Part shown: piece after piece, positions 6,805-19,135 of the stretch
Layout: each line of letters opens with the position of its first letter
How positions within the stretch are numbered: the first letter of the stretch is position 1
Assembly: GCF_003991155.1 (NCBI RefSeq)
Contig: NZ_CP031293.1
From: Escherichia coli
Lineage (GTDB): Bacteria; Pseudomonadota; Gammaproteobacteria; Enterobacterales; Enterobacteriaceae
Length of the DNA: 64,000 nucleotides
Strand: one strand, 5' to 3'
Made by a program: the position numbers and the translations under genes
The notes under the pieces: model-generated
What the model was told of the DNA's origin: nothing
Seen by the model: only the letters and a program-made list of their open reading frames with translations
Databases searched by the model: none

Positions 6805-8118
<1,314 letters not shown>

Positions 8119-8137
8119 GTCTGACTTTATCTGATTT

Positions 8138-8169
8138 AAAAATGCCAGCCTTCGGGCTGGCATTTTTTA
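8138..8169. terminator. bidirectional intrinsic terminator shared by eno (+) and the convergent TPM gene (-)
   Basis: AAAAA TGCCAGCC ttcg GGCTGGCA TTTTTT; A-run on one side and T-run on the other. Confidence 0.8.
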
Positions 8170-8177
8170 TGGTTGAG

Positions 8178-9050
8178 TTACCAGCGACCGGACGCGCCGC
8201 CACCGCCAGAAGAACCGCCCCCGCCGCTAAATCCGCCGCCACTTGAGCCGCCACCGGAACCGCTGTTGTCTGAATGATAACTTCTACCAGATGCTTTTTT
8301 CTGAAGTACACATAAACAGGTAAAGACCATAATGGTGGTGAAAGTAAAAAAGAAGAAAAATACAGCAATGGAAAAAGTTTTATCGGAGAACAGGAATAAA
8401 TCTAAAAGATAGATTGCTGAAATACAGACACTGCTTTTACATGCGCGACAAAAATTACTGCCTTGATGAAAAAACCAGAAAGGGAAGAACATCACTGCAA
8501 ATACCCAAAAAATAGCAAAGTAATAATGATCACTGGAAGACGCTGATTCAATTTCTGAAGGATTAGCCGGATATTGGTGTTGTGAAGTGAGTTGGTTATT
8601 CAAAGCGTTTATAGCTAGCTCTAATCCCTGAGCTAATTTTTGTTGTTTAAATGCGGGTATCATGTTGCTACGGATGATATCTCCAGCCAGAGCATCGGTT
8701 ACCTTTTCTTCCAGCCCATAACCTACCTGGATGCGGACAGTGCGGTCCGACCAGGCAACAATGATCAGTATCCCATCATTGCGTTTGGCATCTCCTAAAC
8801 GCCAATTGTTAAAAACCCTTGTAGCATATTGTTCAATAGAATCGTCTCCGGTGGATGGCACTATTAATACAGCGACCTGTGCCCGTGTTTTTTGTGTAAT
8901 ATCCTGCAGCTGTTGTGTTAGTGATTGTTGTTCAGACGTGCTTAAGGTACCAGTAATATCGGTCACCTGTTGGCGCAGCTCCGGCACTGCAATTTGCTGG
9001 GTAAGCCCAGGAAGGCACCATAAAGTAAGTAGAAAAAAGATTAAGCGCAT
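8178..9050 (-). CDS. TPM-domain (YgcG-like) membrane protein, paralog C; ATG start at 9050 chosen over GTG at 9059
   Basis: Signal peptide, TPM/DUF477-like domain ([29 protein letters not shown]...), hydrophobic segment, C-terminal [25 protein letters not shown]. Confidence 0.8.
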
Positions 9051-9055
9051 AATGA

Positions 9056-10204
9056 TCACCAGCGTCCGGATGAACCGCCGCCTCCTGAAGAACCGCCACC
9101 ACCGCGGAAAGAATTTCTCGACGAAGAGCGAGAATGAGCATTACGATTCCCCGTTTTCCTGTTGCTTTTTTCTCCTGACCCCAGTTTAAGATTGCCAGTA
9201 AATTTGGCCACAATGATCAGCAGAACGATGCCAGCAATGGTTATTGGGCCGATAAAATGATCAATTAACCCAATAATTGTTGAGATGAATGCAATATCTT
9301 TATTACTGGCGAACACCAGGCACCATCCCACAACAATTATCAGCATCACGACAAACAATGAATTTCGTCCTGATTCAGGAAATTGCTGGGTCTTCTTTTG
9401 TTTTTTCACTTTAGTGTTTTTATTTTTGGGGGCCAGCATCATAGGAAATGCGCGGCACATATTAAAAACTACCGCGAGACGCTGCCAGCAGGTTGTTGCT
9501 AACAATAAACTAAAACAAACGATCGACACCCGCCGAATGATGACATCATCCTGAAAGAAGAAAAACCAGACCATAGGGGTAATCATCGATATCATCCATA
9601 TGCCAGGCCCAGGACGGCTGGTAAATCGCCAGAGGACAACGATGGCAACGATCATCAGCAGTGTCCAGGCAAGACATGGCAGCGAACGTTGTGGATTAGC
9701 AAACAGATGATTGGCTAAAGCATCCAAAGGGCTAAGGTTCGCTTTGATATGGGTAAACTGTGCGATGCTTTCAATTCCGCCCGTTAATCCAGCAAAGAGA
9801 TTGCTTTTTTCGAATTCTGGCTGCATATGGTAACGAACAATTTGCGCAGCTTGTTCTGGCGGCAACATCTGTTCCAGTCCATGTCCAATCTTCATTGACG
9901 CCAGCCCTTCCGGCCATACGACGAGAATTAAGATACCTTCGCCATATCGCTTCTCTCCAACGGGTTTCCAGTGATATAACCCGTATCTCTGCGAGGCTGC
10001 AAGTTTAATGTTTTTGCCCCCTGTAGTCGGCGTAACCAACACGGCCACCTGGAAGTGGTTTTGCTGCTCGAGAGTCTGTAATTGTTGATTTAAAGCAGTT
10101 TGTTCTTCTGTCGTTAATGTCCCGGTTAAGTCAGTTACTGAAGGCAATTGTTCAGCGAATACCTGAAAACCGCATAGCATCAGAAGTAAGAGAAAAATAC
10201 GCAT
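9056..10204 (-). CDS. TPM-domain membrane protein, paralog B, with extended polytopic membrane region
   Basis: 382 aa; signal peptide, TPM domain ([23 protein letters not shown]...), about 200 aa hydrophobic region, C-terminal [15 protein letters not shown]; RBS AAGGAA. Confidence 0.8.
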
Positions 10205-10218
10205 ATCAATTCCTTTTG

Positions 10219-11112
10219 TTACCAGCGTCCGGAAGCGCCACCGCCACCAGATGAACCGCCACCACCGCGGAAATTGTCATTGTCGAATGAAGAGGATGAC
10301 GATGACGAATAGTGGGAGGAAGAATTACTTCTTGTATGGCGTGATGGCTGGTTGGTATTACGCATCGAATCCCGAACCTTTTTGCCGAAGGGAGTAAAAG
10401 CGATGGCGACAGCCAGGAACGGTGTGGCGAAGCAGAGTAATGTTGCGAGCACTCCCCAGCTTCCGCTGAAACCTGCTATAGGTAAAACAAAGGCCAGTAC
10501 AATAGCTGCGAAGCAAATCAGTCCCAGCGTTTTGATATATCCTCTGGCAGAAATAAACGTCAGTATTATCGCCCAGACTAACAAAGCCCACCAACCGCTA
10601 AAGGGCAAAGGGTGATCGGTCGGTGTTATCGTTGCTGAATTATTCCCCGTCAGGCGACTTTCAATATCGTTGATCCCCTTTTGTAAACCACCAGCCAGGT
10701 CGCCTTTTTTAAATGCCGGAATAATACTGTTGCGAATAATTTTCCCGGACTGTGCATCCGTAATAATACCTTCCAGTCCGTAACCGATTTCAATACGCAC
10801 GGTATGATCCTGCCAGGCGACTAACAGTAGAACGCCATCATCGCGGTCTTTATCACCCGGTTTCCAGCTATCGAATACCCGCGTTGCGTACTGCTCGATG
10901 GTTTCATCGCCTGTTGTATCAACCACTAACACGACCAACTGTGCGTGGTTTTTTTGCGTCAGGGCTTTAATCTGGTTGGTCAGGGTGTTTACTTCGCTGT
11001 TTGTTAATGTGCCGGTTAAGTCATTCACATACTTGGGGGATTCAGGTACTGGAATTTGTGTGGCAAACACAGATGAACAGAAGAAAGCCATAAGGAAGAT
11101 AAAATTTCGCAT
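10219..11112 (-). CDS. TPM-domain membrane protein, paralog A; start at internal ATG (MRNFIFLMAFF signal peptide)
   Basis: TPM domain ([29 protein letters not shown]...), TM segments, Ser-rich linker, C-terminal [15 protein letters not shown]; 13 bp downstream of lemA stop. Confidence 0.8.
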   Translation of the reverse strand: MRNFIFLMAFFCSSVFATQIPVPESPKYVNDLTGTLTNSEVNTLTNQIKALTQKNHAQLVVLVVDTTGDETIEQYATRVFDSWKPGDKDRDDGVLLLVAWQDHTVRIEIGYGLEGIITDAQSGKIIRNSIIPAFKKGDLAGGLQKGINDIESRLTGNNSATITPTDHPLPFSGWWALLVWAIILTFISARGYIKTLGLICFAAIVLAFVLPIAGFSGSWGVLATLLCFATPFLAVAIAFTPFGKKVRDSMRNTNQPSRHTRSNSSSHYSSSSSSSFDNDNFRGGGGSSGGGGASGRW

Positions 11113-11125
11113 AGAACTTCCCCGC

Positions 11126-11728
11126 TTAATGCGCATTAGCATTCTGGCTAAAATCTATTGTTGGGGCTTTACTTACTGCGGTGACATCATCCGGCAAATA
11201 ATTTTTCTTTGGTGTGTAATCCATGACCTTTGCGGTTAATACAGCGGGGAATTTGCGGATAGTGACATTATATTGTTCAATGGCTTTAATATATCTTCCT
11301 CGCGCAACGGCAATTCTATTTTCACTTCCTTCGAGCTGTACCATTAAGTTTTGATAGAGTTCCTGAGCTTTTAACTCAGGGTAACGTTCACTAATTATCG
11401 TTAACTGACCGAGAGTGCGAGACACCTGCGCCTGGGCTTGTTGCCAGGCTTGTAATTTTTGCGCATCTCCCGGAGCTTGCTGAAGATCGCTACTGGCGCG
11501 ATTAGCCTGGCTACGTGCCAATGTTACGGCTTCCAGTACCTCTTGTTCATGGCTGGAATAACCTTTAATACTGGCGACAAGATTAGGAATAAGATCGGCG
11601 CGACGTTGATATTGATTCAATACCTCAGACCAGGAGGCGTTAACCTGCTCATCATAGGTTTGAATATCGTTATATCCACAGCCTGATAAATTGACAATAA
11701 ATATAATTACGATGAATATCCTGAGCAT
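11126..11728 (-). CDS. lemA: LemA-family lipoprotein/membrane protein
   Basis: 200 aa; N-terminal lipobox-like NLSGC; LemA-family sequence pattern; first gene of the lemA-TPM operon. Confidence 0.8.
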   Translation of the reverse strand: MLRIFIVIIFIVNLSGCGYNDIQTYDEQVNASWSEVLNQYQRRADLIPNLVASIKGYSSHEQEVLEAVTLARSQANRASSDLQQAPGDAQKLQAWQQAQAQVSRTLGQLTIISERYPELKAQELYQNLMVQLEGSENRIAVARGRYIKAIEQYNVTIRKFPAVLTAKVMDYTPKKNYLPDDVTAVSKAPTIDFSQNANAH

Positions 11729-11900
11729 GTCTATGTCCCTTTTAATTAATTCCTTAAAACATAATACGCCGCTTCATTTTATTCTTTATGATCTCATCCA
11801 CTTTTTGCCTTAAACCTGCCTGTAACAGAATGTTAATAAGACATGATTGTTGTGGCAGGATCTGCAATAATTAACAATTATCCACTTCACAGAGAATGCT

Positions 11901-12572
11901 ATGCAGTACCCGATTAACGAGATGTTCCAGACCCTGCAAGGTGAGGGTTACTTTACCGGCGTCCCCGCCATTTTTATTCGTTTACAGGGATGCCCGGTTG
12001 GCTGTGCCTGGTGCGACACCAAACACACCTGGGAAAAGCTTGAGGATCGGGAAGTTTCCCTTTTCAGCATTCTGGCGAAGACCAAAGAGAGTGATAAGTG
12101 GGGGGCTGCGAGCAGTGAAGATTTGCTGGCTGTCATTGGTCGCCAGGGATACACCGCGCGGCATGTGGTGATTACGGGTGGTGAGCCTTGCATTCATGAT
12201 TTGCTGCCACTGACTGACCTGCTCGAAAAGAACGGTTTTAGCTGCCAGATCGAAACCAGTGGTACTCATGAAGTACGCTGCACACCGAATACCTGGGTTA
12301 CCGTATCGCCAAAGCTGAATATGCGCGGCGGCTATGAAGTGTTGTCACAGGCACTGGAGCGAGCCAACGAAATCAAGCATCCAGTGGGACGCGTACGTGA
12401 TATCGAAGCACTGGATGAATTGCTTGCGACGCTGACCGATGATAAACCGCGAGTCATTGCACTTCAGCCAATTAGCCAGAAGGAAGATGCTACGCGTTTA
12501 TGTATCGATACCTGCATAGCGCGCAACTGGCGTTTGTCGATGCAGACACATAAATATTTGAATATTGCCTGA
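11901..12572 (+). CDS. queE: 7-carboxy-7-deazaguanine synthase (radical SAM)
   Basis: 223 aa; Cys motif CPVGCAWCDT; divergent from lemA operon. Confidence 0.93.
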   Translation: MQYPINEMFQTLQGEGYFTGVPAIFIRLQGCPVGCAWCDTKHTWEKLEDREVSLFSILAKTKESDKWGAASSEDLLAVIGRQGYTARHVVITGGEPCIHDLLPLTDLLEKNGFSCQIETSGTHEVRCTPNTWVTVSPKLNMRGGYEVLSQALERANEIKHPVGRVRDIEALDELLATLTDDKPRVIALQPISQKEDATRLCIDTCIARNWRLSMQTHKYLNIA

Positions 12573-12656: not shown

Positions 12657-13664
12657 TTATCGGTAGCGTTTTTGTAGACTGGCTGGAAGATAACGCTGTA
12701 ATGGGGATGGCGTTTCACCTTCAATCAGTTGCGAAATAAGCTCAAAGCAGTGAAAAGCAAGTTGGCGATTATCCTGTTGTATTGTGTCGATTCTTACCGA
12801 AAGTGAATCATACAAGTAATGATCATCAAAACTCGCCAGGTGGATTTTACTGTCGAGTAAATTATATTGGCTCATATAGCGCAGAACGCCTTCCAGTAAT
12901 CCACAAGCGGCAGTGAATAAGGCTTTAGGGGGACGTCCTAAACGAGCGCATAGCGCGGCAAACATTTCATAGCCTGAGCTCGGATGATAATTACCGTGAA
13001 TAATCCATTCAGGTTGTAGCGTTACTCCGGCTTGCTGCAAGCCTTGTGTAAATCCTTCCAGTCGATCGCGAGTCGGTGACAAACGGGGTTGTCCCCCCAG
13101 AAAATAGAATTCATCCGGGTGACTCCGTGCAATATCTGCCACCAGAGCGGTGGTGGGAGAAACAGAGTCAGTAATGACCAATGGCAATGTGCTGCCGTTC
13201 ATGTGGCGATCGAACAACACAACAGGTAATTGCTCGCTAAGTTTTTGATAGTCATTATCATGCAGCATACTGGATGCGACGATTAACCCATCAACCTGGC
13301 GGGCAATCATATTGTTCACCACCATTGTTTCCTGTGAAGGATTTTCATCAGTACAGGATATGAGGAGTTGGACGCCCGCTTCCCGACACAATGTTTCCAG
13401 TTCATGGGAAAATACTGCAAATCCGTAGTTAGTGATTTCAGGAACGACGAGACCAATGGTATGACTGCGGTTGTCCCGTAATGAGCGGGCATGAATGCTG
13501 GGCTGATAATGCTGCTGTTGGGCAATACTCAGCACACGCTCACGCGTTTCCTGCGCAACACGTAACTCTTTGCCACGACCATTGAGAACCAGACTGGCGG
13601 TTGCTTTCGACACTCCCGCCAGTTCAGCAATGTCTTTAATAGTAACGCGTTTGGTTTTTCTCAC
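12657..13664 (-). CDS. scrR: LacI-family sucrose operon repressor
   Basis: 335 aa; N-terminal HTH ([23 protein letters not shown]); position at end of scr operon. Confidence 0.88.
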
Positions 13665-13689
13665 GACGAGGATCCGTAATTCAAAACCC

Positions 13690-15099
13690 TCATTCTACCA
13701 TGCAGGCGCGTAGCGACCAGTAGCGTAACGTGACGTCAGACTCACCCTGTAATATCAGCGAAGCTGGATGATGGGGAAAATAACGATTACTCATTACACC
13801 TTCACCATTATTGATGAATATCTCTACGCTGGAACTGTCACAGAGAATCTTCAGTGACGTTACGCTTCCTCGCCAGTAACGAGTTAGTTTCTCTTGCCCT
13901 GCAAGGCTTCTCCTCTGTAGTTGAATACCATCGTCATTAAGATGCAGTGCCAGCGCATTGCCAAAATTCAGATACAGCTCACCCGACGGAATGATGTCCA
14001 TTTCCAGGCGTTCAATTTCGACATGCGGCGCATGATCTGCTTTTCCTTGCCAGAAGTGTTCAGCTTCACGCAGTTGCGCGAGTTCCCTGATTGGCATCTG
14101 AAACAATTTTCCCTTCTGGAATGAGAGTTCGCGAAAACAGGTCATTTGATGCTGCCAATGATGCTTTCTGGTTGGTTGCAACATCTCTTCGCCATCAGGA
14201 ACCCCCATCCAGCCGACCAGCAATCGTCGCCCGTCCGGGGCTTCCATCGTCTGTGGTGCATAGAATTCAAATCCCGCATCCAGCTCTGAGAAAGCGCCAT
14301 GCGTAAATTTGCCTGTCTCGTAATCAAACTGTCCATGTAGCCAGGCGCAGGGATAAGTATTCAGATAGCGCTCATGTTCGCGCACCATTCCCTGGGGGCA
14401 ACAGAGGAGAATGTATTCACCATCAAGGGCGAAAAAATCAGGACATTCCCACATGTATCCTGCGTTATCTATTTCATTCAGACCGTTACCAGCAATTTCT
14501 CCATGAAAAGACCAGGTATAGAGATCGACAGAGGAATACAGCAGCACTTTCCCCCGTTTCTCTTTATCTTGCGCGCCAAGCACCATGTACCATTGGCTGT
14601 TGTGCTTCCAGACTTTTGGATCACGAACATGTCCGGTGTAACCATCAGGTAACGGTATGACAGGGCCTAGTTTATCAAACCCGCCCTGGTTATTTTCGGT
14701 GGCCAGGCATTGCCATGCCGTTCTGCTGCCATCATCAAACTTAACATTACCGGTATAGCAAAGTGTGAGAACGCCCTGATTATTAACCGCGCTTCCTGAG
14801 TAACAACCATTACGGTCGTACTCTTTATCGGGCATTAGCGCTAATGGTTCATGCTGCCAGTGCAATAAATCCGTCGAACTCCAGTGCCCCCAACATTTGT
14901 ACTTATGATCACAAGCCAGTGGATTCCACTGATAAAACAGATGATAGCGGCCTCCAGACCAGCAAAAGCCATTTGGATCGTTCATTAGTCCAGTGACGGG
15001 AGCGAGATGCCAACAAGGATAGTGGGCATCTGCCAGTACTTTGGACTGACCTTTCATCACTGCCTGTAAAATCGCGGGCATTTGTGAAGGCATCGACAT
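13690..15099 (-). CDS. scrB: sucrose-6-phosphate hydrolase (GH32 invertase)
   Basis: 469 aa; GH32 motif MNDPNGF, WECPD; start overlaps scrA stop. Confidence 0.92.
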
Positions 15100-16469
15100 T
15101 ACTCCTCGTCCGTTTTGTATTTGAGTAATAAAGAGAGGCTAAAAGCGACAGCGAAAGCAATCACCATTCCAATAATATAATTAACCAACGATGTTGGCTG
15201 AACGATTGCCATGCCGGGTATTGCGGTCAGACCAACGGCAGTCATATAAACGTGAACAGAGACAACCCAGGCACCGCCGGCAGCGCCACCAATTAAGGCC
15301 GCAATAAAAGGTTTAACAAAACGAAGGTTGATACCAAAAATAGCGGCTTCAGTAATCCCTAACATTGCGGAAAAGGCCGAGGGTAGGGTGATTGCTTTAA
15401 TTTTTGTATCTTTGGTTTTAAACCATACCGCCAGACATGCACCGCCTTGCGCAACGTTTGCCATTGCCCAAATAGGCAGCAGGAAATTAACACCGATTGC
15501 AGGGTTACCTAAAAGTCCTGCTTCAATTGCGTGGAAGCTATGATGAATACCCGTAATAACAATCGCTGAATATAGTCCGCCGAATAACAACCCTGCTAAC
15601 CAGCCTGCGTGTGCAATCAGCGTGCTGAGAACGAAAGAGATACCGTCACCTAACGCTCGTCCTGCCGGACCAATAATCAAAAGAGCGATAAAGCCAGAAA
15701 TGACGACAGTCAGAAATGGCGTCAGAATGAGATCCAGAGCATCAGGGATAAACCTGCGTAACTGTTTTTCCACTATGCTCATAAACCATACTGCCAGAAG
15801 TACGGGGAAAACCGTTCCCTGATAGCCAATCATGGCGATTTCAAAACCGAAGAAGTTCATTGTCTGAAATCCCGCAGCAACGCCCCAGGCATTTGTGAGT
15901 GCCGGGTGAGTCAGAATCCCTCCTAATGTCGCGCCAAGATAAGGATTTCCACCAAATTCACGAGCAGCAGTAAAGCCAATAAGGATGGGGAGAATAATAA
16001 ATGCGGCTGAACTGCACATATCCAGCAGGATATAAATCGCATTATCGGCATTCACCCAGCCATATATTTTCACCATTCCCAGAAGCCCCATTAATAAACC
16101 AGAAGCAACAATGGCTGGAATGATGGGGACAAAAATATTAGAAAGTAGCCGTGCTATTCGCTGAAAAGGATTGAGTTTTTGAGCGGCGAGTCGAGCGGTA
16201 TCTGCTTTACTGGATTCGCTAATACCTGCAACCTGAATAAAGGCAGCATAGACTTTATTAACCACGCCGGTGCCAAAGATGATTTGCATTTGCCCTGAAT
16301 TACGAAAACAACCTTTCACTCCATCAATCTGGCCAATGGCATGTTGATCGGCAAGTGTGTCGTCAACCAGTACCAGCCGTAGGCGAGTGGCGCAATGTGC
16401 TGCACTGGTGATGTTCTCCTTACCACCTAATAAAGGAAGCAACGATTGGGCGATTTTATCGAAATCCAT
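15099..16469 (-). CDS. scrA: PTS sucrose-specific EIIBC component
   Basis: 456 aa; EIIB Cys motif (AAHCATRLRL) followed by EIIC membrane domain. Confidence 0.92.
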   Translation of the reverse strand: MDFDKIAQSLLPLLGGKENITSAAHCATRLRLVLVDDTLADQHAIGQIDGVKGCFRNSGQMQIIFGTGVVNKVYAAFIQVAGISESSKADTARLAAQKLNPFQRIARLLSNIFVPIIPAIVASGLLMGLLGMVKIYGWVNADNAIYILLDMCSSAAFIILPILIGFTAAREFGGNPYLGATLGGILTHPALTNAWGVAAGFQTMNFFGFEIAMIGYQGTVFPVLLAVWFMSIVEKQLRRFIPDALDLILTPFLTVVISGFIALLIIGPAGRALGDGISFVLSTLIAHAGWLAGLLFGGLYSAIVITGIHHSFHAIEAGLLGNPAIGVNFLLPIWAMANVAQGGACLAVWFKTKDTKIKAITLPSAFSAMLGITEAAIFGINLRFVKPFIAALIGGAAGGAWVVSVHVYMTAVGLTAIPGMAIVQPTSLVNYIIGMVIAFAVAFSLSLLLKYKTDEE

Positions 16470-16529
16470 ATAACCCTCTAATTCATTGTTATTTCAGTAA
16501 AAGCCTCACATCCGTGAGGCTGTCTGGTA

Positions 16530-18071
<1,542 letters not shown>

Positions 18072-18091
18072 TTATAAAAATTGCTAAAATG

Positions 18092-18105
18092 CTAAACCGG
18101 TTTAG
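18092..18105. promoter_or_regulatory. candidate ScrR operator (perfect palindrome CTAAACCGGTTTAG) upstream of scrY
   Basis: 14-bp perfect palindrome in scrK-scrY intergenic region. Confidence 0.6.
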
Positions 18106-18150
18106 GTGTTGATAATAAAGCTGACTTTTTAGCCAGAGCAATTATTTTCG

Positions 18151-18164
18151 CTAAACCGATTTAG
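18151..18164. promoter_or_regulatory. candidate second ScrR operator (CTAAACCGATTTAG)
   Basis: near-perfect copy of the palindrome 59 bp from the first. Confidence 0.55.
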
Positions 18165-18217
18165 TAAATGTGACAGGCACGACAAATCGGGTTACAGATA
18201 CAACAGCAGGATCACTA

Positions 18218-19135
18218 TTATGAAGGGAGATCGTGTTGTCGGGGTAAGGCGGTCATCGCGCCTTTAGCCGTGGTCGCCAGAGCACCACAAATCTGAGCTT
18301 GTGCAATGATTCGTTCAAGCTGTCTGGTATTTGTTGGTATTCCAGAATCAGCCAGACCTGCAAGTAATCCAGCGACAAAAGCATCTCCTGCCCCGGTCGT
18401 ATCGACGACAGAAACAGGTTTGGCGGGATAGTGGATAAACTGCCCCTGAAAATACACAAGTACGCCATTTTTTCCTTGTGTAATAAGCAATAAAGTCAAC
18501 GAATAACGTTGTACTAATGAATATGCGCCTTGCTGAACCTGGCTTTCGCCACTGATGAATAGCAACTCTTCTTCGGACAATTTAGCGATATTCGCCAGCG
18601 AAAGTGCGCGATCAAGGTATTTCCTTAATAGCGCTTCACTCTGCCAGAGATCGCTGCGGATATTGGGATCAAAACTGATGTTTCCGCCAGCCTGACGTAT
18701 TTTCTCCATAGCCAGAAATGCGGTACTTCGGGAAGGTTCTGCACTGAGCGCAATGGAACAAAGATGGAGCCATTCACCCGGCCCAAATGCAGGAAGGTCA
18801 CCAGGTTGTAAAAAAAGATCGGCACTTGGGCGTACCATAAAGGTAAAGTTTCTTTCTCCTTGCTCATCAAGTCCTACAGCCACAATTGAGGTGCGTTGTT
18901 GAGGATCAAGAGACATATAACGTGTATCAACATTTTCTGTACTCAGTGTCTGATACATAAAGCGACCGAAAGGATCATCGCCAACTTTGCCAATAAAGGC
19001 ACTTTTCCCCCCCAGCCTTGCGATACCGACTGCAACATTAGCAGGCGCCCCGCCAGGACACTGTAGTAGTCTCCCCTGGCTTTCGGGTAATAAATCAACA
19101 ACCGCATCACCGAGTACCCATACTCTTGCGCTCAT
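18218..19135 (-). CDS. scrK: fructokinase (PfkB family)
   Basis: 305 aa; PfkB/ribokinase motifs (DTTGAGDAF); first gene of scr cluster; RBS GGAG. Confidence 0.9.
   Translation of the reverse strand: MSARVWVLGDAVVDLLPESQGRLLQCPGGAPANVAVGIARLGGKSAFIGKVGDDPFGRFMYQTLSTENVDTRYMSLDPQQRTSIVAVGLDEQGERNFTFMVRPSADLFLQPGDLPAFGPGEWLHLCSIALSAEPSRSTAFLAMEKIRQAGGNISFDPNIRSDLWQSEALLRKYLDRALSLANIAKLSEEELLFISGESQVQQGAYSLVQRYSLTLLLITQGKNGVLVYFQGQFIHYPAKPVSVVDTTGAGDAFVAGLLAGLADSGIPTNTRQLERIIAQAQICGALATTAKGAMTALPRQHDLPS

Follow-up and report, generated by a model that had tools for sequence, protein, structure and literature searches.

The question raised by this locus is what a row of four genes contributes between eno and queE on an Escherichia coli chromosome, at a site where strain K-12 carries a single TPM-domain gene. 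The locus lies in a stretch of 64,000 nucleotides of contig NZ_CP031293.1 (assembly GCF_003991155.1), hereafter the window, in which four consecutive minus-strand open reading frames (ORFs), here called lemA, tpmA, tpmB and tpmC, fill positions 8178–11728 (Table 1). Judged from comparisons of gene neighbourhoods and protein sequences, LemA and a long TPM protein constitute an ancient pan-bacterial pair, present in Thermotoga, Bacilli, Clostridia and 70+ Proteobacteria, and the array is an Escherichia-lineage expansion of this ancestral two-gene unit, of which the K-12 state is a later reduction. The long TPM protein of this pair has an exported TPM domain, one or three membrane helices and a Gly-rich tail. 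Few bacterial envelope proteins without an assigned function are as widespread as LemA and the YgcG-type TPM proteins.

A LemA alignment was used to scan one genome for each species, which yielded 80 loci, almost all from Proteobacteria. ORFs were called at 79 lemA loci (75 from the scan and four others) and searched with a TPM hidden Markov model built here. Two TPM genes lie directly downstream of lemA in 42 of these loci, one in 30 (often at a contig end), none in five (contig ends) and three in two; three long copies were found only at both E. albertii loci. A long TPM gene directly follows lemA in most loci, and the first TPM gene is always of the long type, with a C-terminal tail ...GGGGASG[RSD]W, whose final W is present in 67 of 69 proteobacterial long TPM proteins. 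The second gene encodes a short protein of 163–175 aa that carries neither signal peptide nor membrane segment, ends in NELPDxPVxL and is presumably cytoplasmic. Long TPM proteins match BA41 (5ANP; E=9e-21) and short ones the stand-alone TPM protein BA42 (4OA3; E=3.9e-18). The lemA genes of Thermotoga, Neobacillus and Caloramator overlap or directly adjoin a gene encoding a signal peptide, a TPM domain and one or more membrane helices, and the tail ends in GASRGW, GAGRGW or GSSGSW.

This widespread operon, exemplified by Thermotoga TM0961 (PDB 2ETD) with its downstream gene and by loci of Pseudomonas, Klebsiella and Bradyrhizobium, shares with the array the two protein families, gene order, tight coupling, predicted topology and G-x-W tail, and its products are labelled merely "LemA family protein" and "TPM domain-containing / YgcG family protein". 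The array differs in having three long TPM genes instead of one, with divergent membrane regions (about five segments in tpmB). Moreover, whereas by this tally most Proteobacteria add a short BA42-type TPM protein, Escherichia does without it and has three long ones: no short BA42-type ORF occurs between tpmC and eno, so that the canonical three-gene form, with the short TPM gene seen in 42 of the 79 loci elsewhere, is not present here. No other gene family recurs near the lemA operons; among the neighbours, the top-ranking clusters consisted of artefactual antisense ORFs from high-GC genomes and the real recurrences were clade-restricted. In the full-text library searched, LemA appears together with TPM in two transcriptome mentions only, and no paper treating the two as a unit was found. 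Searches on LemA with TPM, ygcG and yqcG likewise returned no functional study of the module, in agreement with the first-pass annotation of the window, made from the letters without database searches, which had considered its function not established.

That annotation had described the four genes as a minus-strand array of LemA and three TPM paralogues, and Pfam searches bore this out for every protein. LemA matches its family profile over the full length and has the four-helix-bundle fold of TM0961; the three TPM proteins combine the PF04536 match with the TPM alpha/beta fold. Two gene starts were corrected. The longest ORFs for tpmA and tpmC are 10219–11142 (307 aa) and 8178–9059 (293 aa), and their RefSeq orthologues begin at ATG 11112 (MRNFIFL) and ATG 9050 (MRLIFF), respectively, which are the most likely starts on this comparison, GTG 9059 also being possible for tpmC. 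With these starts the spacers between lemA, tpmA, tpmB and tpmC measure 13, 14 and 5 nt, and because the genes are so closely spaced and a terminator occurs only after tpmC, the four form a single operon. The terminator hairpin is also self-complementary in the K-12 comparison. The GC content of the array is 45.3% against 51.5% for the window, placing it in the lowest 0.7% of stretches of equal length, and GC at third codon positions is 0.38–0.48 in the array genes compared with 0.52–0.57 in eno, pyrG and queE, so that the AT-richness relative to the flanks noticed earlier is real.

For each paralogue a signal peptide, a TPM domain and a membrane region had been proposed, and all three features were recovered by the profile search and by hydropathy. 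The N-termini resemble signal peptides (for example ...SSVFA/TQ and ...FQVFA/EQ) and the domain is followed by three hydrophobic segments in tpmA and tpmC and by about five in tpmB, which also has a Lys-rich loop; in tpmA a Ser-rich basic linker separates the three hydrophobic helices from the tail. All three proteins end in F[RS], ten residues and [AS]SGRW (SGRW in 3/3), and the corresponding DNA constitutes a family of 53-nt direct repeats, D1, with 77–87% identity. The near-identical GRW tail is therefore common to the three paralogues as had been stated, but it does not reflect their homogenisation: since it is kept across phyla (Proteobacteria, Thermotoga, Firmicutes), it is a signature of the subfamily and not a product of recent exchange. 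With signal peptide, TPM domain, an odd number of helices (counted from hydropathy only) and a Gly-rich G-x-W tail, the proteins belong to the long, YgcG/BA41-type group. They are not members of the Psb32 family, scoring 34.4 bits (tpmA) and 41.3 bits (tpmC) against NCBIfam NF047379, with a cut-off of 160 and no match for tpmB.

The Gly-rich tail is most likely on the cytoplasmic side, because homologues with a single helix (from Thermotoga and loci L047 and L031) carry Arg-rich sequence after it; TPM proteins with three segments agree with the positive-inside rule at an odd helix count. Crude hydropathy, which gives two post-domain segments in most homologues, would place the tail in the periplasm, and this alternative was rejected since a 40-residue hydrophobic stretch is a hairpin and one-helix variants exist, giving an odd count. 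An AlphaFold2 (AF2) model of TpmA draws the first two hydrophobic segments, with modest confidence, as one 41-residue helix. In the same full-length model residues 254–285 are disordered, while the last nine (GGGGASGRW, 10219–10245) form a beta strand with a predicted local distance difference test score (pLDDT) of about 80; if the model is right, a docking peptide would be expected to behave in this way.

LemA is predicted to be a lipoprotein with its four-helix-bundle domain in the periplasm. Its N-terminal anchor reads as a lipobox, LSGC, with Cys17 and Gly at +2, and the motif L[ST]GC[GSN]YN is kept across proteobacterial orthologues; the first-pass annotation did not mention it. Thermotoga and Firmicute LemA proteins have, instead of a lipobox, a single membrane helix after a basic N-terminus. 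Given one or the other, the bundle and the exported TPM domain should share the extracytoplasmic side of the membrane, and LemA is predicted to be tethered to the outer face of the cytoplasmic membrane via a lipid or an N-terminal helix. The LemA domain is shared with the magnetosome protein MamQ, but LemA here reaches 91.4 bits (E=5e-26) against NCBIfam NF040966, below the cut-off of 250, and there is no magnetosome context at this locus. These comparisons reveal an ancient, obligatorily linked pair of predicted extracytoplasmic, membrane-tethered proteins, with a conserved C-terminal peptide most likely on the opposite side of the membrane. What is new is that the pair and its W-ending tail have been kept from Thermotoga to E. 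coli, with both globular parts predicted to be periplasmic; the families and the K-12 gene were already annotated, and the array is a lineage-specific variant of a known but unexplained module. As a separate observation, LemA matches the phage protein family phrog_1383, "virion structural protein" (E=3.5e-22), as well as phrog_29825, and LemA-like proteins therefore occur in phage genomes.

The history of the expansion can be read from E. albertii, which carries the same four genes at the same site. In a tree of TPM domains tpmA, tpmB and tpmC each pair with their E. albertii counterpart, and the duplications are therefore older than the species split. The paralogues are 36–58% identical in the TPM domain and 23–31% after it, and the TPM domain of tpmB, the most divergent copy, shows 75% identity to E. 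albertii tpmB and 36–40% to tpmA and tpmC; by these measures they are old paralogues. Klebsiella has lemA and a single long TPM gene at the same eno/queE site, and in Pseudomonas the lemA-TPM pair lies at another genome site. The array had been suggested to be either expanded or ancestral, and each description holds in its own comparison: it is expanded relative to Klebsiella and to the pair in other phyla, and ancestral relative to K-12, given the E. albertii orthologues of each paralogue.

Within E. coli, a survey of the eno-queE interval over 5,426 complete genomes revealed three nearly exclusive forms. The K-12 type, yqcG-ygcG, is found in 3,948 genomes (73%) and lemA-tpmA-tpmB-tpmC in 1,102–1,104 (about 20%), while about 350 (about 6.5%) have lemA-tpmA with an unrelated 120-aa membrane ORF, a number obtained by subtracting the 1,104 genomes with tpmB from the 1,454 with lemA. 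All copies are chromosomal, none of 5,432 places being plasmid-borne. It is tpmA that is retained beside lemA in the two-gene form, where a 120-aa hydrophobic hypothetical protein, WP_000034929, replaces tpmB and tpmC beside eno (locus L002, 3603–3965).

The earlier statement that K-12 has one TPM gene at this site was correct and the gene is ygcG; it is accompanied by a 46-codon gene, yqcG, which had been overlooked and which RefSeq labels as a cell-envelope stress response protein. K-12 shares with the array the chromosomal site, the upstream control region and the ygcG tail but lacks lemA, tpmA and tpmB. Nucleotide identity between ygcG and tpmC is 95.6% over window positions 8002–8873 (the 3' 700 nt of ygcG), whereas no DNA similarity to the array exists anywhere in yqcG or in the first ~59 ygcG codons, and similarity returns upstream at 82–88%. 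On this alignment ygcG corresponds to tpmC as its orthologue, but its 5' end has been replaced. The K-12 yqcG gene (L001 3465–3605) uses the upstream region of lemA, the alignment falling at window positions 11696–11761. Derivation of yqcG from lemA as a remnant was considered and rejected: the alignment is confined to the upstream DNA and the first ~11 codons of lemA, and the coding sequence of yqcG is unrelated to lemA.

The array itself also varies. In O157-type strains and E. albertii the membrane region of tpmC (window 8259–8695) is present as a second allele, non-homologous to the first, and the two deep allele classes share 54% amino-acid identity over the whole protein. In O157-type strain 135 (L010 5653–6576) tpmA is interrupted by an in-frame stop (VLAT*LCF) and so loses its tail and last membrane helix, while the other genes of the operon are intact. 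An insertion sequence, IS4, lies inside the array of an otherwise identical strain, and an IS1-mediated deletion has removed the array from another. RefSeq flags tpmA in L011 (6570–7508) and L002 (4001–4936) as a pseudogene "missing C-terminus"; this was not upheld, as both frames are open from end to end, up to the GRW stop, and the label is probably an annotation artefact, arising because the Ser run ahead of the tail varies in length.

Some indication of regulation is available from K-12, where the counterpart of the divergent lemA/queE control region is bound by the sigma-S holoenzyme, as determined by chromatin immunoprecipitation sequencing and genomic SELEX (systematic evolution of ligands by exponential enrichment) (PMC4447067, PMC5493296), and by phospho-PhoP (PMC4974570). 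Deletion of yqcG in K-12 led to higher queE expression (PMC4974570) and, by analogy, the lemA operon may influence expression of the divergent queE too. A consensus scan revealed no convincing sigma-70 promoter in the lemA/queE spacer, with two sites in 4 kb against seven expected by chance, and an Rfam search of the region found no element. Matches to PhoP-box and sigma-S motifs, judged by eye, were weak.

The argument on the function of the module proceeds by analogy with structural relatives. These carry the following unlabelled figures in our list: BA41, 24.2; 7TBR, 23.1; PG0361, 20.3; TLP18.3, 18.9; Psb32, 18.5; a subunit of the CIII2CIV2 supercomplex (6ADQ_J), 14.8; and LemA 2ETD and BA42, both 14.6. 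Several of them act on membrane complexes. Psb32/TLP18.3 act in the assembly and repair of photosystem II, and 6ADQ_J, a DUF5130 protein, belongs to the CIII2CIV2 complex of M. smegmatis; CcoZ of C. jejuni, also a TPM protein, is required for cbb3 oxidase activity (PMC8267372). Comparative genomics has led to the argument that TPM is a chaperone-like assembly domain and unlikely to be a phosphatase (PMC11237479, PMC12419801). These relatives show only 13–15% sequence identity to the proteins here and, as far as seen, have neither a LemA partner nor a Gly-rich tail. In Bacillus subtilis the TPM protein YdjH is encoded in the pspA-ydjGHI operon and is partnered by PspA/band-7 instead of LemA; the surroundings of the lemA-tpmABC locus contain no PspA-like gene.

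We propose, with what we regard as an even chance of being right, that the predicted periplasmic LemA lipoprotein and the three inner-membrane TPM paralogues together constitute a stress-induced factor for the assembly or maintenance of membrane complexes. The TPM domains would be docking or assembly factors without catalytic function, stationed at the inner membrane on its periplasmic side; this is what their relatives do on photosystem II and CIII2CIV2. LemA would bind the TPM domain as an obligatory direct partner, and the membrane helices and conserved tail would link assembly in the periplasm to the cytoplasm, in most Proteobacteria perhaps to the short TPM protein. The three paralogues, divergent in their membrane part, could serve different clients or form a hetero-oligomer, and expression would probably be induced in stationary phase or under envelope stress via the control region common with K-12 yqcG. 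A direct LemA-TPM interface is suggested by an AF2 model of a LemA(21–182)-linker-TpmA(20–156) fusion, computed with 36 species-paired sequences, in which the mean pLDDT is 82 and the predicted template modelling score (pTM) is 0.68, against ~0.5 anticipated for two domains of this size that are not oriented to each other.

A related but bolder proposal, which we consider a rather long shot, is that the Gly-rich, Trp-ended tail would be the cytoplasmic docking peptide of an undescribed trans-membrane coupling device, relaying the state of the periplasmic LemA-TPM complex through the membrane helices to a cytoplasmic partner. In most Proteobacteria this partner could be the short BA42-type TPM protein, joined by beta-strand addition, and in Escherichia something else, with the three paralogues acting as three input channels.

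Several points weigh against the assembly-factor proposal. The literature yielded no experiment on any LemA-TPM pair, and the modelled interface has the pTM as its sole support. The three-helix count, and hence the cytoplasmic tail, is derived from hydropathy, the positive-inside rule and one-helix homologues, and AF2 merged the first two segments. The argument on regulation is carried over from K-12, where other genes lie downstream. Under default Lol sorting, Gly at +2 directs a lipoprotein to the outer membrane, and LemA would then be apart from the TPM proteins in the inner membrane unless their complex spanned the periplasm. Finally, frequent loss of the genes hints at weak selection: 73% of E. 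coli genomes are without lemA and the O157-type tpmA has its stop codon.

This last point bears directly on the alternative that the array is a decaying remnant, dispensable in Escherichia and in the course of being lost, so that the four genes retain little or no current function. Besides the predominance of genomes with yqcG-ygcG only and the tpmA stop, the IS4 insertion and the IS1-mediated loss fit with decay. Ratios of non-synonymous to synonymous substitution rates (dN/dS) were computed against three E. coli alleles and E. albertii. They range over 0.03–0.18 for lemA, 0.12–0.16 for tpmA, 0.20–0.45 for tpmB and 0.26–0.42 for tpmC, the values for the last two being far above the 0–0.05 of the neighbouring eno, pyrG and queE. 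Against E. albertii, however, dN/dS is 0.03 for lemA, 0.15 for tpmA, 0.20 for tpmB and 0.38 for tpmC, at dS values of 0.44–1.18, and we conclude that purifying selection acts in relaxed form, that no gene shows positive selection over its whole length, and that the genes are therefore maintained. All four frames have stayed intact here and in E. albertii despite this divergence, and the tail and the lipobox are perfectly kept, which makes decay an unlikely account of the array. Catalysis appears slightly less probable still. A hydrolytic activity of the TPM domains on periplasmic ATP, ADP or further phosphoesters, LemA being regulator or anchor and the three paralogues taking different substrates, would be in line with BA41 and BA42 of Bizionia argentinensis, published as cold-adapted ATPase/ADPase and phosphatase on the basis of in vitro work only; the available parts of these texts do not raise the LemA context, and a BA42-type gene is missing from the Escherichia operon. 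The literature disagrees on whether the family has phosphatase or nucleotidase activity. The domain has, as noted above, been argued in two papers to be an unlikely phosphatase (PMC11237479, PMC12419801), the well-studied members, Psb32, the CIII2CIV2 subunit and CcoZ, are subunits or assembly factors, and a simple periplasmic hydrolase leaves both the strict partnership with LemA and the cytoplasmic Gly-rich tail unexplained.

The first-pass annotation had itself suggested a diversifying envelope or conflict system. On such a reading the tandem copies, differing in their middle parts, would confer different specificities on a defence or toxin-immunity module, directed against phages or other bacteria. 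The presence/absence polymorphism in three haplotypes, the low GC content and the deep split of tpmC alleles into two classes in the membrane region would all be in keeping with such a role, as would the phage family match of LemA and the location beside a variable interval, occupied by a CRISPR (clustered regularly interspaced short palindromic repeats) array in K-12 and by sucrose genes here. Yet dN/dS stays below 0.5 in all four genes, none of the proteins matches a family of PADLOC-DB v2 at E<=0.01, and no toxin, nuclease or NTPase domain lies nearby. Its genomic location also speaks against a conflict system: Klebsiella and E. albertii have it at the same chromosomal site, every E. coli copy is chromosomal, and LemA homologues occur in just 97 of 72,556 plasmid records, among the best matches listed mostly on replicons of 0.13–2.2 Mb. 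Moreover, the pair has been kept as a single-copy operon from Thermotoga to Proteobacteria, and the common tail is pan-bacterial. We therefore abandoned this interpretation as highly improbable.

The value of the locus lies in providing a genetic entry point; in itself it represents ordinary chromosomal biology and no new kind of system. E. coli supplies natural knock-outs, with one gene in K-12, lemA and one TPM gene in ~6.5% of genomes and all four genes in ~20%, including O157-type strains, and an old question of unknown function thereby becomes testable in the best genetic system at hand.

Table 1. Positions in the window of the lemA-tpmABC array, its control elements and neighbouring genes.
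Feature	Position	Strand	Remarks
eno	6820–8118	+	flank of array
Bidirectional intrinsic terminator	8141–8170	.	between eno and tpmC; perfect hairpin, AAAAATGCCAGCC-TTCG-GGCTGGCATTTTTT, read from sequence
tpmC	8178–9050	-	290 aa, long TPM, orthologue of K-12 ygcG; PF04536 E=2.6e-39
tpmB	9056–10204	-	382 aa, most divergent long TPM paralogue; PF04536 E=3.1e-21
tpmA	10219–11112	-	297 aa, long TPM; PF04536 E=2.6e-41
lemA	11126–11728	-	200 aa, predicted lipoprotein; Pfam LemA PF04011 E=1.2e-48, model 1–149/149
Tail-coding repeat, tpmC	8180–8232	-	53 nt, direct-repeat family D1
Tail-coding repeat, tpmB	9058–9110	-	53 nt, D1
Tail-coding repeat, tpmA	10221–10273	-	53 nt, D1
Divergent lemA/queE control region	11729–11900	.	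172 bp; 82–88% identity to K-12 yqcG/queE intergenic region
queE	11901–12572	+	flank of array, divergent from lemA
LacI-family regulator	12657–13664	-	name from DS566 (L011)
Sucrose-6-phosphate hydrolase	13690–15099	-	name from DS566 (L011)
Sucrose phosphotransferase system (PTS) IIBC gene	15099–16469	-	name from DS566 (L011)

Beyond the array, the minus-strand region downstream of queE (12657–19135) holds a sucrose-utilisation cluster, three of whose genes could be named from the collinear strain DS566 and which contains two more ORFs. At this position K-12 has a CRISPR array and L002 a longer one, and the stretch from eno to ygcE is a hotspot for differences in gene content.

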